Below, in pieces: positions 7,114-30,262 of a stretch of 64,000 nucleotides of DNA. This DNA comes from Eledone cirrhosa (lineage: Eukaryota), in NCBI GenBank assembly GCA_964016885.1, contig OZ024742.1, positions 284,642,001 to 284,706,000 on the forward strand, read 5' to 3'. The position numbers and the translations under genes were made by a program. The notes beneath the pieces are model-generated. The model was not told the DNA's origin. It ran no database searches and was given only the letters and a program-made list of their open reading frames with translations. Within the stretch, counting starts at the first letter, position 1. Every line of letters begins with the position of its first letter.

Positions 7114-8007
7114 TAGATAGATATATTTCTTTATTAGCCACAGGGGCACAAAAGAAGGGGACAAATACAAAGGGGGAAGTTTACATACAATAAAAACGTG
7201 TAAAATGTTATCACAGATGGAATTTAAAAGTTAGTCGATTTTCCCCAATAGAGGGAGACAGTTTATATGGGTAACACAGACCCCCGAAAAAAATGTGCAA
7301 CCCTCATCTCCAGGAGTACGAAGAGCTTGTACTCCTTTCCTCTCCTCCTCCTTTTCCTCAACCTACAGGCTGATATAGAGAGAAGGCCCATTCACTCGGG
7401 CCATTCTCGCCACTTTCACCCACCTTTCATAAAACTTGCTGGGGTACAGCACCTCTCTCTCCATCCTGATTCTTCTTCCAAAGTGGTATTTGAAAAAAAG
7501 AATCAGTTGTTGGCCGGAGAGAAAGGTGTCTGACCTCAGCCCTTTCAACCTTGTCCACCATACAACCTCTTTCGCCATAGCTATCACACAAAGGAAAACC
7601 GCCTCTCCTTCGTTTTTGAAGGAGGGTGGCGGTTTGATCATGACAATGGACTCGGTGGTCAACTGGATTGGTCCCACCCGCGACAATAGTCGTTCCACAT
7701 AGCCCCACAGGTCAGTGACGCCCGGGCAGTGTATGAATGCGTGCGCGACGGTTTCTTCGTCTCGCACGCACCTCGGACAGATCTTTTTTGCAGGGTCCCT
7801 GCCCGGGCGCCCATGTCTGTAGAGCTTGTCTCGAACTGGTAGAGCTCCTCGGTAGCACTGCCAGGCCAGGGACTTTTGGAAGTTGTCCATCGGTCCCGGG
7901 CGGAAGGTCCTACCGAACAGACTGGCCAGTTCATCTTCCTCCACGCCTAGAGTTTCACCGAGCGCGTCGTCGCACTTGCTGCGGACCAACCCTCTATAGA
8001 ATGACGA
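7114..8007 (-). mobile_element. Tx1-type LINE 3' portion, copy D (5'-truncated)
   Basis: ORF 7363-8028 encodes the ORF2 C-terminus (CPRCVRDEETVAHAFIHCP), homologous to 1505-2150. Same tail as B and C. Truncated at the junction with the 310-bp repeat. Confidence 0.9.
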
Positions 8008-8170
8008 ATATTCTATGTCTATATTCACATATATATCGCTATTTCAGAGCATTTATTCCAATTTCTAATTTCTGCCGGACCGGCAACCGCTCTTTCAAAC
8101 CAGTTCCTGTACACAGCTAAGTATTCTATAAGTCTCTAGCTGTGTCATTCTCGATAAAAGCACTGGATAT

Positions 8171-8213
8171 GTAGTCCTGATGATTTCTAACGAGAATGAA
8201 ACGCGTAGATTAC
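8171..8213 (+). ncRNA. Type I hammerhead ribozyme (family 1, copy 1)
   Basis: Stem I GTAGTC/GATTAC, CTGATGA (8177-8183), stem II TTCT-AACG-AGAA, GAAA (8198-8201), CGCG, then TA; predicted GUA cleavage after 8207. Stem I is extended by a perfect 16-bp helix 8147-8162/8220-8235. Confidence 0.88.
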
Positions 8214-8480
8214 TTCCCTTGCTTTTATCGAGAATCTAATTGTAATACGTGACGTATTCTATTCTATAGCGATTAGGTCTTCAAAATGTTTATTATAAAC
8301 ATACAGAATATTTTCGAATATTCTATGTCTATATTCACATATATATCGCTATTTCAGAGCATTTATTCCAATTTCTAATTTCTGCCGGACCGGCAACCGC
8401 TCTTTCAAACCAGTTCCTGTACACAGCTAAGTATTCTATAAGTCTCTAGCTGTGTCATTCTCGATAAAAGCACTGGATAT

Positions 8481-8523
8481 GTAGTCCTGATGATTTCTAA
8501 CGAGAATGAAACGCGTAGATTAC
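8481..8523 (+). ncRNA. Type I hammerhead ribozyme (family 1, copy 2)
   Basis: Identical to 8171-8213, offset +310. Confidence 0.88.
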
Positions 8524-8790
8524 TTCCCTTGCTTTTATCGAGAATCTAATTGTAATACGTGACGTATTCTATTCTATAGCGATTAGGTCTTCAAAATGTT
8601 TATTATAAACATACAGAATATTTTCGAATATTCTATGTCTATATTCACATATATATCGCTATTTCAGAGCATTTATTCCAATTTCTAATTTCTGCCGGAC
8701 CGGCAACCGCTCTTTCAAACCAGTTCCTGTGCACAGCTAAGTATTCTATAAGTCTCTAGCTGTGTCATTCTCGATAAAAGCACTGGATAT

Positions 8791-8833
8791 GTAGTCCTGA
8801 TGATTTCTAACGAGAATGAAACGCGTAGATTAC
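8791..8833 (+). ncRNA. Type I hammerhead ribozyme (family 1, copy 3)
   Basis: Identical to 8171-8213, offset +620. Confidence 0.88.
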
Positions 8834-9145
8834 TTCCCTTGCTTTTATCGAGAATCTAATTGTAATACGTGACGTATTCTATTCTATAGCGATTAGGTCT
8901 TCAAAATGTTTATTATAAACATACAGAATATTTTCGAATATTCTATGTCTATATTCACATATATATCGCTATTTCAGAGCATTTATTCCAATTTATATAT
9001 ATATATATATATATGTATATGTAGGAGGTGAGTTTTATTGTAGTACAATAAAGCAATGCAGATATCGGATAAGAAGCACTCTAAAGTATGTGGAACTGGA
9101 GTATGCATAATATAAGATCAAAAGATGGTTAAAGGAGTTCAATAT

Positions 9146-9214
9146 ATTTTATTATGCGCATTTCAAAAACAAACATCATCAAACAATAATATTTGTGTTT
9201 TCATCAGATAAAAC
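9146..9214 (-). ncRNA. Type I hammerhead ribozyme (family 2, inverted arm copy)
   Basis: Reverse complement of 12634-12702; TCATCAG at 9201-9207. Confidence 0.85.
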
Positions 9215-27605: not shown

Positions 27606-28255
27606 CTTTTCGCTCCATTGAGTGCTTTGTGATTGCCTCAAACAAATCGAATAGTACATGCTGTACGGCAGCTACAACTTCGGTTTATTCATAATATAAT
27701 TTATTCTCCTAGATTCATGTATACGATCGATGACGGTTTAGTTATTTTTTGTTTGCAAACACAAGTGGAGAGCTTTTGTTTTGCGGCTATGAGAATTCCT
27801 TTGTTTTCACACCTCGAAAATAACCGCCATAACTTCGGCCAACTTAACCTTCCTCTTTTGAAAAAGGCCACATGACGATACAGGCAGAATTACTACTGTA
27901 GGTAAAATGCCTCTGTCGCCAAACCGAAATTTGGATTAAAACGAACAAAACCAGACGAAAATGGTTTACTCCAGTTCCATCGTGGAAGTGCACACATGTA
28001 TTGCATATGCATTATGCAACTTGTTATGTAGGTTCCAAGAAACCTATCTGAGATTTTTATCAATTTTAATCAACAAGAGTAGGTGCAGGTTAGTGTCATC
28101 CTTTCTGTATCTATTGTTTTTATGGTATACGTATGGCCACTGCCTTGGTGTCTTGTTTACTCTGGAGGATAAAGCTTTTCACTCCATTGAGTGCTTTGTG
28201 ATTGCCTCAAACAAATCGAATAGCACATGCTGTATGTACTACAACTTCGGTTTAT
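27606..28255 (+). repeat. About 80-bp direct repeat with a 569-bp period, ending near (TA)n
   Basis: CTTTTC.CTCCATTGAGTGCTTTGTGATTGCCTCAAACAAATCGAATAG occurs at 27606 and 28175. Confidence 0.8.
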
Positions 28256-28459
28256 ACCTAATATGTGTGTATGTATATATATATATATATATATATATAT
28301 ATATATATATATATATATATATATGTGTGTGTGTGTGTGTGTGTGTGTGTGTGAGAGAGAGAGAGAGACAGCTCACACCTATGCGGGTTTAGCTGGTCTC
28401 CTCTAAGGTATATCTCGTTGGCGGTGTCTTGGGTAATTTAATGATAGGGACTCTAGTCC

Positions 28460-28600
28460 TATCATCTCATTTCTACAGCTGAGTAAACTGGAGTAACGTG
28501 AAATAAAGTGTCTTGCTCAACACATCACCCGATCCGAGAATTGAACTCACAACCTTTAGATTTCAAGCCCAATGCTCTAACTACTAAGCCATGCGCCTTC
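28460..28600 (-). mobile_element. tRNA-derived SINE 5' part
   Basis: Minus strand reads GGCGCATGGCTTAGTAGTTAGAGCATTGGGC...GTGAGTTCAATTCTCGG, an A-box/B-box-like tRNA head. Related to 22825-23070. Confidence 0.65.
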
Positions 28601-29393
28601 ACATGGAATTGGTGTCAGTTATAACTGACACCAATTCCTTTACCTATTTTGGCTCCACTTCCACCTCCTTTAAAGCTCGTCTTTATAACCATCATTCGTC
28701 TTTTAAATACAAACTTAAAAGAACCAACACGGCTCTCTCAGAACTCATATGGTCCTTGAAAGACAAAAATATTAAATATAGCATCTTTTGGAAAAAGGTT
28801 TCTATTAGTTCTCTATCCAAGATTTGTAATCTCTGTCTAAATGAAAAATTTACCATTATATCTAATTTAGATTCTATAATAAATAGACGCACTGACTTGT
28901 TTTCTCTCTGCTTGCATAAATTCCACAAAACATTCCACAAAGTATACAGCTAATATCCAAAACTTTATCAATTTAGAATCTTTTTCTCAAAGGCACATAT
29001 ATATACTTCTTTAAAAATATACCCATCTTTCTACCTTATTTCAAAGTTATTTATTATACATTATATAATACTTGTTACTCATTCTATATCACTCCTATTT
29101 ATCACTTCCCTTTCTTCATTTTCCCTTTCTTCTCTTTTTCTTTTAATGTTTAACCCCTAATCTGTACCTTTTCTCACTGTTGCCTAACATAGAAACAATT
29201 ATTACACAATACAATACATTCTTACTTTATATTACCTTGCAAAAATCCTTCGTAAACATAAACATTTTTTGACGTTAGATTATTCATCCTCAATTCATTA
29301 TTTTTTTTCTCCCTTTCATCTAACTTATTCATGCTCATCTCACAATATATCCTTACTTACATTACTTGTTGTTCTTTTTAATAATACATATCA

Positions 29394-29550
29394 ACATTTT
29401 CTTTCCATCGCACATATTATTAGACCCTTAAATATTATTCTTAATACATATTAACATTTTCTTTCTATCGCACATATTATTAAACCCTTAAATATTATTC
29501 TTAATACATATTAACATTTTCTTTTCATCGCACATATTATTAAACCCTTC
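29394..29550 (+). repeat. 60-bp tandem repeat (about 2.6 copies) within the PLE 3'UTR
   Basis: CTTT..ATCGCACATATTAT at 29401, 29461 and 29521. Confidence 0.85.
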
Positions 29551-29907
29551 AATATACAAACCTTAACTTTACATTATTTTTTCCTTCGTTAATTTTCAAA
29601 TTCTTTTAATTTATACATTATCTTCCAACGGTTTTTCAACCTCTCTATGTAAAACAATATATTTCTCTCAGTTATAAAAGCTATCTCTCTCTCTCTATCA
29701 GCCATCTCTCCTCCTATCTCATCCTTCCTCATTATACTCCTCCCTCTCCACTTTTTACTCTCATCTCCTCCTCTTTTTCATCCCCTCCCCCCCTTAAAAA
29801 ATATATATTTTTCCCAATATCACACATCAATCTAAAACTACTTTTCATATGTTGATTTAAAACTGCACTATCCACAAGTGTTTTTTAACCTTCATATCAT
29901 GTCTTCC

Positions 29908-29978
29908 TATTTTATCTGATGAAAACACAAATATTATTGCATGATGATATTTGTTTTTGAAATGCGCATAATAAAATA
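29908..29978 (+). ncRNA. Type I hammerhead ribozyme (family 2, third copy)
   Basis: TATTTTAT, CTGATGA (29916-29922), stem II, GAAA (29959-29962), TGCGCA, TA, ATAAAATA. Confidence 0.87.
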
Positions 29979-30211
29979 CATGGAACTCTTTTAACCATCT
30001 TTTGTTCTTATATATATATATATATATATATATATATATATATGTATGTGTATGTGTATATATATATATATATATATATATATATATATATATATATATA
30101 TATATATATATATATATATATATATATATATATATATATATATATATATATACATAAATATACATATATATATATATAGAATTCACAAGAATCAAAGATA
30201 TGTTCAAAGCA

Positions 30212-30262
30212 TTTATTCACTTACAATTGTTTCATCCAAACCTAGGCTTGGGGTCTTCGAAC
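30212..30262 (-). ncRNA. Degenerate hammerhead-like motif plus AATAAA (possible family 7)
   Basis: Minus strand TCGAAGA, CCAAGCC/GGTTTGG stem, GAAA, palindromic CAATTG, TA, then AATAAA and (TA)n about 35 nt later. Core is non-canonical and there is no clear stem I. Confidence 0.4.

Follow-up and report, generated by a model that had tools for sequence, protein, structure and literature searches.

Penelope-like elements of the Hydra clade that carry hammerhead ribozymes and use (TA)n targets have been published, including Hydra-1_Obim of Octopus bimaculoides (Craig et al. 2021, PMC8557442), and hammerheads are also documented in Penelope terminal repeats, in thousands of dispersed copies and in pairs lying on opposite strands (PMC4209133). 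Retrozymes, in turn, have been presented as likely Penelope passengers (Cervera and de la Pena 2020, PMC7229834; review PMC7761336; bioRxiv 10.64898/2026.07.22.740005). Two questions are open in the field: the identity of the enzyme that mobilises retrozymes in animals, and the importance for transposition, if any, of the hammerheads found in Penelope-like elements. Earlier work, arguing from co-occurrence and homology, proposes that Penelope elements act as helpers and that the templates are circular, and one in vitro study found cleavage dispensable. Here we analyse a stretch of 64,000 nucleotides (nt) of the 3.0-Gb genome of Eledone cirrhosa (OZ024742.1:284642001-284706000, hereafter the window), which hosts several families of hammerhead-bearing elements; one of them, family A, offers sequence-level evidence on both questions through its insertion signature and its clonal haplotypes.

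In the region 8005-30460 of the window, elements bearing hammerheads have inserted eight times into TA microsatellites and form a chain, so that the 12 hammerhead motifs and the one degenerate motif found there represent only eight insertion events. These derive from seven families, named A to G: four are coding Penelope-like families (the Hydra-type B, F, and G and the Neptune-type D) and three (A, C, and E) are non-coding tandem families. A preliminary description of this DNA had recognised coding Penelope-like families beside non-coding hammerhead passengers, as is the case, but had counted two helper families and up to four passengers; the numbers change because F and G are the 5'-truncated 3' ends of further families coding for a reverse transcriptase (RT) and a GIY-YIG endonuclease. 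The lack of common sequence outside the core was also correctly seen (no blastn similarity was found among the families). On the basis of the motifs, family copy numbers, TA junctions, open reading frames (ORFs), and shared two-armed, one-tail architecture, all directly observed, we consider it highly likely that the chain of eight insertions and the copying of the non-coding families by a Penelope-like (probably Hydra-type) enzyme are both correct. The families are fresh members of described kinds, with unusually clear evidence on the movement of the non-coding ones.

Insertion signature and (TA)n target

In every family except D, two preferred 3' ends exist, and the distance between them is about 35 nt in A, 65 nt in F, 75 nt in E, 83 nt in B, 112-120 nt in C, and 150 nt in G. 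The 23 fetched insertions of family A include 20 two-armed ones with both ends visible, one cut by the edge of the locus, and two single-armed ones; in all 20 two-armed insertions a long end is paired with a short one, the two sites differing by about 35 nt and both ends pointing outward into TA-rich repeat, and all the visible 3' ends of the fetched A insertions enter such a repeat. Families B, C, E, F, and G together provided 28 divergent pairs, and one long and one short end were also recognised in 21 of these (ends judged by eye; two of the F pairs are near-duplicates), with two of four clear cases in C and two of four in E. An inverted arm combined with a tail on one end is the published Penelope architecture (PMC8557442; PMC3846280), and both strands are cut and extended by a Penelope-like protein in purified form, the tail being defined by its two internal start sites (PMC11167929). 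The Penelope-type mobilisation of the passengers, suggested in the preliminary description, is supported by this two-armed, one-tail signature (20/20 in A).

According to the mechanism that we propose, the GIY-YIG endonuclease would cut both (TA)n strands, and each 3' end would prime reverse transcription, which would begin downstream of the hammerhead at either of two fixed internal sites and so produce back-to-back arms; we have little doubt that cutting of both strands and priming at two fixed internal sites would be the way in which these insertions formed. A fold-back on the first complementary DNA (cDNA), considered as a source of the inverted arm, was disfavoured by the tail of the window copy B1 and by the ends of the divergent pairs. 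Indeed, of the two B1 arms only the shorter bears the tail, and fold-back on the first cDNA cannot, therefore, supply it; two separate primings on the RNA are favoured. The closest biochemical parallel is with Anolis Poseidon (Frangieh et al. 2024, PMC11167929), which shares the cutting and extension of both strands, the two internal start sites resulting in an optional tail, and the AT-rich target. However, Poseidon belongs to another clade and its start sites are reported to be non-homologous to the target, whereas the end sites described here carry short TA-like stretches. The tails of Penelope-like elements have been described as 30-40 nt long (PMC8557442), whereas those of B, F, and G measure 65-150 nt.

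The identity of the helper was approached from the same architecture. Unlike A, B, C, E, F, and G, family D has no divergent pair within 7 kb among the first 100 matches listed, and for this reason the passengers resemble the Hydra-type families; their helper would probably be an enzyme of the Hydra type rather than that of the Neptune-type D.

The sharing of a (TA)n target, also claimed in the preliminary description, holds when genomic copies are inspected (exact anchor matches; first 30 loci of each family from B to G, a sample biased to contig C1 and to young copies). The fixed 3' site is directly followed by (TA)n in 26/30 loci of B, 26/30 of D, 23/30 of F, 19/30 of G, 17/30 of E, and 16/30 of C, versus 6.5% of random control points. 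A CT run precedes (TA)n in five further loci of G, three of E, and five of C; nine loci, including five of C, continue into a tandem unit; and the loci classed as other are two (B), two (D), seven (F), six (G), eight (E), and four (C). The statement that each insert of the window ends in (TA)n is broadly right, except that a short CT run comes first in C and in the short arm of E, and about 55 other bases in the long arm of F. Four TA tracts of the window are common to neighbouring insertions. Insertions leave TA tracts at their ends, and later insertions would likely reuse them, leading to a pile-up.

Hammerhead motifs and element families

The positions of all 13 motifs listed in the preliminary description (12 plus the degenerate one) proved correct. 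The catalytic core (C3-A9, G12-A14, A15.1-U16.1, H17) is exact and in type I order in 12/12 motifs, and stem I has at least 5 bp in 11 of them (criterion, 4 bp or more), the exception being D with 2 bp. A strict type I descriptor recovered nine of the 12 (three of A, three of B, one of C, and two of F; Table 1), as compared with a mean of 0.025 and a maximum of one motif in 200 block-wise dinucleotide shuffles of 8005-30262; the E pair and D were missed. Both E motifs escaped the descriptor because of a mismatch near the base of their long stem II. Once refolded, they show an AUC site and an exact core, with 5 bp in stem I and a stem III that is palindromic, and the 3' half, which lay outside the search anchor, is identical in 19/30 genomic copies of E. 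An interpretation of E as a GGAA core variant was rejected, since GGAA sits in the loop of the long stem II, and a permuted topology was unnecessary. As for D, its core is exact, but the motif is doubtful as a ribozyme because its stem I, only 2 bp long, varies between copies and is deleted in one; it finds no support across 18 copies, and alignment folding revealed no extended stem I. Minimal motifs mostly have a 4-5-bp stem I, and the 2 bp of D resemble Drosophila virilis Penelope (PMC4209133). The degenerate nature of the G motif was correctly noted: 29/30 family copies have U4C in the core, and in the window copy C3U and a mismatch in stem I are present as well. This natural core variant is, therefore, kept in 29/30 copies of a coding family with more than 1,100 exact anchor matches.

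The CUGANGA box of B, C, and F lies outside the anchor and yet is near-invariant (alignable loci 30, 24, and 28 of 30, respectively), N7 being the variable position of the box in B and F. In family A, seven of the eight subfamily-fixed changes within the hammerhead affect N7, loop II, or the basal part of stem II, or else leave pairing intact, and none hits an invariant base (by eye); the predicted hammerhead fold of A is conserved across the subfamilies. Two A motifs are predicted to co-fold as a dimer through a 6-bp intermolecular stem III (-15.3 versus 2 x -4.6 kcal/mol).

Exact pattern matches in the genome to one anchor per family number 4,033 for A (43-nt anchor), 21,234 for B, 1,353 for C, 2,231 for D, 86 for E, 3,917 for F, and 1,144 for G; reversed-anchor controls gave 0. 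B, F, and G encode, in genomic copies that are in some cases frameshifted, a single RT ORF with a C-terminal GIY-YIG, DKT in place of DKG, a CxCX5C linker, and one or no Cys between GIY and YIG; the RWK motif is exact in F and reads RWI in B and RWR in G. Judging from these motifs, compared by eye with the references, they appear to be Hydra-clade Penelope-like elements, with which they share (PMC8557442) DKT, the linker, the lack of a Cys pair inside GIY-YIG, the (TA)n target, and a type I hammerhead that is located close to the 3' end and has a 4-bp palindrome as stem III; by eye, both the protein and the stem III of F come near those of Hydra-1_Obim. The differences include the RWI and RWR variants, the very high copy numbers, the tandem spacing of B and G (about 4 kb versus less than 3 kb), and the hammerhead sequences, which are unlike those of all the listed families (none was found by motif look-up in the tables of PMC8557442). 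Pfam did not recognise the B coding piece. D shows DKG, a CX4CxxC linker, CxxC inside GIY-YIG, and a C-terminal endonuclease (RVT_1 E 9.5e-06); on its motifs it appears to be a Neptune-type element, Nematis being a possible alternative, and it has in common with the Neptune clade (PMC8557442) DKG, a CX2-5CxxC linker, CxxC inside GIY-YIG, a microsatellite target, and a minimal hammerhead core.

F and G were also tried as non-coding passengers, and this was rejected: among long loci chosen for their spans, matching RT/GIY-YIG ORF sequence lies upstream of the hammerhead in 5/6 loci of F and 6/6 of G (in one of them only as a 64-aa piece). On the other hand, the longest ORF starting with ATG has 30 aa in A, 47 aa in C, and 59 aa in E. 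No Penelope protein match was found upstream in C, except one to a neighbouring B-like piece. The possibility that E is the stub of a coding element was rejected for the observed unit, in that 20 near-full units gave no Penelope protein match. The arms of A reach up to 14 units; C occurs as dimers and trimers with tandem spacings of 511-542; and E, with a unit of 1,313 bp, forms only partial tandems of just over one unit.

A and C can be likened to the metazoan retrozymes: they consist of short non-coding tandem units with one type I hammerhead per unit, have a weak palindromic stem III suited to dimers and a predicted stable circle (z about -4.3 for A and -4.9 for C), and coexist with Penelope-like elements. 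E exceeds the 51-972 bp range of retrozymes (Li, Clavereau and Pollet 2026, bioRxiv 10.64898/2026.07.22.740005). The retrozyme papers argue from co-occurrence and terminal-repeat homology, whereas in the present families the insertion signature of Penelope is seen in full, together with clonal haplotypes that extend across arms. A literature search, which left most subscription journals, Repbase, and Dfam uncovered, listed no paper dealing with retrozymes in cephalopods or reporting that retrozyme insertions have Penelope-type ends.

Some further elements were observed in the fetched loci. A fifth Penelope-like ORF (544 aa, with the Hydra-type linker motif and about 47% identical to B) lies inside an F insertion (L226:2833-4464). 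A repeat resembling, by eye, a tRNA-derived short interspersed element (SINE) is found just behind the hammerhead in 6/30 E loci (L063, L069, L076, L078, L081, and L088), at slightly differing points of an ATT-rich stretch, and in the F locus L105. Moreover, random blocks of the genome (loci L245, L247, L253-254, L257-258, L267, L282, L303, and L319) contain at least six further hammerhead families absent from the window, several as divergent pairs near TA tracts.

Template of family A and alternative explanations

Family A is very young: 84 of the 93 complete monomers of nine fetched loci and the window, selected on the 43-nt hammerhead only, are identical. Non-reference haplotypes (about ten) were found in ten A insertions, in every complete unit, and on both arms wherever both are readable. 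A second sample was selected on one variant first seen on both arms of one insertion; its 47 genome matches comprise 37 in four fully variant two-armed insertions, two in a short single-armed one, and eight isolated units. New mutations appear in single units, and variants fixed across whole insertions thus point to a passage through one monomer. In addition, the ends of the A insertions are found past the predicted cut, at distances of about 130 and 165 nt on its downstream side, which implies a template continuous across the cut, i.e., a re-ligated circle or an uncut multimer. The template would be a hammerhead-cut, re-ligated 310-nt circle, copied many times round by the enzyme, and we incline towards such a circle. 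The broader idea that A is a currently active circular ribozyme RNA of 310 nt, copied round by a Hydra-type enzyme from both cut strands, would in our opinion have an even chance of being correct. Near-identical A insertions are estimated to be several hundred (from ten in the first 56 Mb). Among the public sequencing runs, searched for A only, no RNA run is listed as containing the A unit. The unit (window 8005-8624) is found at 90-100% of words in runs under four organism codes, in two of them as an identical 340-base piece without differences, which might indicate one species under several labels, close relatives, or a recent transfer; the kind of run is unrecorded, and these matches carry no information on expression.

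A number of observations weigh against one or another part of this reading. Among the 28 divergent pairs, two (one of them in C) do not obey the long/short rule, and five, of which one belongs to C and two to E, are not assignable. No blastn match (E<0.05) links A, C, and E with B, D, F, G, or the fifth coding family, and the helper is, therefore, not identified by sequence; a derivation of A, C, or E from any of these five was rejected on this ground, a resemblance of A to G seen by eye not being significant. In Xenopus, homology to the Penelope terminal repeat was found in 24/57 retrozyme families and is not obligatory. The 35-nt tail of A equals in length the one D tail seen. Co-clustering of the families is modest: a cross-family neighbour within 1.5 kb was found for 20/180 loci (overlapping and not independent), versus 11/240 random tiles and 11/122 TA-containing tiles. 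With regard to the circle, variants are present in only two of eight units in L373 and in three of six in L384, which a single-monomer circle does not explain, and homogeneous donor arrays could give the same haplotype picture. Lastly, only one of nine Xenopus retrozyme dimers cleaved (bioRxiv 10.64898/2026.07.22.740005), and for Anolis Poseidon in vitro cleavage was not needed, uncut RNA being the main template (PMC11167929).

An alternative idea is that the same enzyme and target operate on an uncut linear multimer coming from a genomic array, the hammerhead not being needed for mobilisation, which we regard as possible, if tentatively. Poseidon hammerhead mutants inserted normally in vitro and no RNA sequencing reads ended at the cut site (PMC11167929); the A ends lie so far past the predicted cut that cleavage does not define them; donor arrays of at least 14 units exist; and the two insertions with partly shared variants would be accommodated. 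Yet, variants arise in single units while about ten haplotypes are each fixed across insertions, which speaks for repeated passage through a monomer, and the fold of A is conserved across subfamilies. Partly shared variants would also be accounted for if only one or two units were retrotransposed and the arrays grew and homogenised after insertion via unequal exchange or gene conversion, as proposed for retrozyme arrays (bioRxiv 10.64898/2026.07.22.740005). This appears unlikely to us: the arrays are nearly undiverged and yet long on both arms, both inverted arms carry the same haplotype, and single-unit variants persist inside the arrays. It is also very improbable that the motifs are chance look-alikes or dead structures unable to cleave. 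The covariance-model support sought for them was not obtained, Rfam giving no hammerhead match at E<=1 in the whole window (37 matches) or at E<=10 in 8000-14100 (20 matches), which also counts against our interpretation; the stem I of D has 2 bp; and the U4C of G is reported to lower activity considerably (PMC3088659). However, published Penelope motifs were found by descriptors and not by Rfam (PMC8557442, PMC4209133), nine motifs were observed versus 0.025 in the shuffles, seven unrelated sets of stems all pair, the core box is near-invariant outside the anchor selection with N7 variable in B and F, and the layout agrees with the published table of Hydra hammerheads (PMC8557442).

Finally, the 22-kb stretch might be a selected cluster of functional ribozymes or a special landing site instead of a neutral pile-up. 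Forty 20-kb blocks taken at round-number positions (800 kb) contain 18 strict motifs (at most four per block) and 16 matches to the seven families (at most two families per block), while the best 20 kb of the window hold eight strict motifs and six families, and the adjacent upstream 20 kb none. Counting by hand gave for the 800 kb about 13 events when only the seven families are considered and about 23 when all are, versus eight in 22 kb, and a Poisson model, which ignores clustering, predicts from them 0.0007 or 0.05 such windows per genome, respectively. The excess is real, about 14-25-fold over the background; it needs only modest clustering and fits the upper tail of the genome. A density of TA tracts only near the median (21-24 versus 18.5 per 20 kb) also speaks for something particular at this site. 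Against this, the copies are of various ages and lie in both orientations, truncation affects most of them and that of G is degenerate, neighbours share TA tracts, other loci exhibit the same cross-family adjacency, and the window was picked after the fact. Selection or a special landing site is, in our view, hardly credible. The special ecosystem envisaged at this locus in the preliminary description is not borne out either: the same families are spread genome-wide and strict motifs occur about once per 44 kb, corresponding by extrapolation to about 67,000 in the genome.

Organization of the window

The features of the pile-up are reported in Table 1.

Table 1. Hammerhead-bearing insertions and (TA)n tracts of the window (positions in nt from its first base).
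Feature	Position	Strand	Description
A, putative retrozyme	8005-8993	+	3.2 tandem 310-bp non-coding units; single-armed; ends at the long (tailed) 3' site
A hammerheads	8171-8213, 8481-8523, 8791-8833	+	Predicted cuts after 8207, 8517, and 8827
(TA)n tract	8994-9018		Common to the A 3' end and the B1 tailed end
B1 inverted arm	9019-9977	-	Tail of about 83 nt; hammerhead 9215-9145; 872/876 bases as in the other arm
B1 main arm	9977-12746	+	5'-truncated Hydra-type element; short 3' end; hammerhead 12633-12703
B1 main-arm coding part	ORF to 11401		C half of RT plus GIY-YIG; 95% aa identity to a 775-aa ORF in locus L239
C	12770-13459	-	About 1.15 units of a non-coding tandem element of about 530-540 bp; hammerhead 13025-12944
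C short inverted arm	13383-13459	+	
(TA)n tract	13725-13806		At the D 3' end
D	13807-17660	-	Frameshifted, 5'-truncated Neptune-type element; minimal hammerhead core 13927-13896, 2-bp stem I
(TA)n tract	17661-17698		Between the D 5' end and the E tailed end
E	17699-18131	-/+	Two-armed stub of a non-coding unit of about 1,310 bp; tailed arm 17699-17895 (-), short arm 17896-18131 (+)
E hammerheads	17874-17801, 18007-18080	-, +	
F	20404-20741	-/+	Two-armed 3' stub of a Hydra-type coding element; short arm 20404-20538 (-), tailed arm 20539-20741 (+)
F hammerheads	20495-20436, 20582-20641	-, +	
B2	28617-30008	+	Copy of a second B subfamily, truncated at the 5' side and comprising the endonuclease C-terminus and the 3' untranslated region; short end; hammerhead 29908-29978
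(TA)n tract	30009-30178		Common to the B2 and G 3' ends
G	30179-30460	-	3' stub of a Hydra-type coding element; short end
G degenerate hammerhead	30264-30218	-	5' boundary approximate; cleavage position 30222

The pile-up is flanked by an L1/Tx1-like element on one side and by a 21-bp satellite on the other. The former encodes an endonuclease and an RT (Pfam Exo_endo_phos and RVT_1) and lies in the interval 1300-8007, in which a second, 5'-truncated L1/Tx1-like copy, 76% identical, occupies 7150-8007, with its truncated end head to head with the 5' end of the A array. The satellite fills 34749-64000 with about 1,390 copies (91% matches) and lies less than 5 kb from the pile-up, in what is perhaps an insertion-tolerant region; a composite tandem repeat of 30/40/70 bp (about 32 units) is found at 32917-33884. 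Two probable SINEs complete the picture, i.e., a dispersed repeat between C and D (13460-13724; 13 matches in 800 kb) and a weak tRNA match (E 0.017) just upstream of B2 (28534-28591).

The cluster itself is ordinary for a genome with tens of thousands of such motifs. Family A provides a short and young substrate with candidate helpers in the same genome. If the scenario outlined above is true, its insertions would document, directly in the genome, both reverse transcription of the rolling-circle type and the hijacking of Penelope-like elements by retrozymes, and its RNA would be small enough for the reaction to be rebuilt in vitro.

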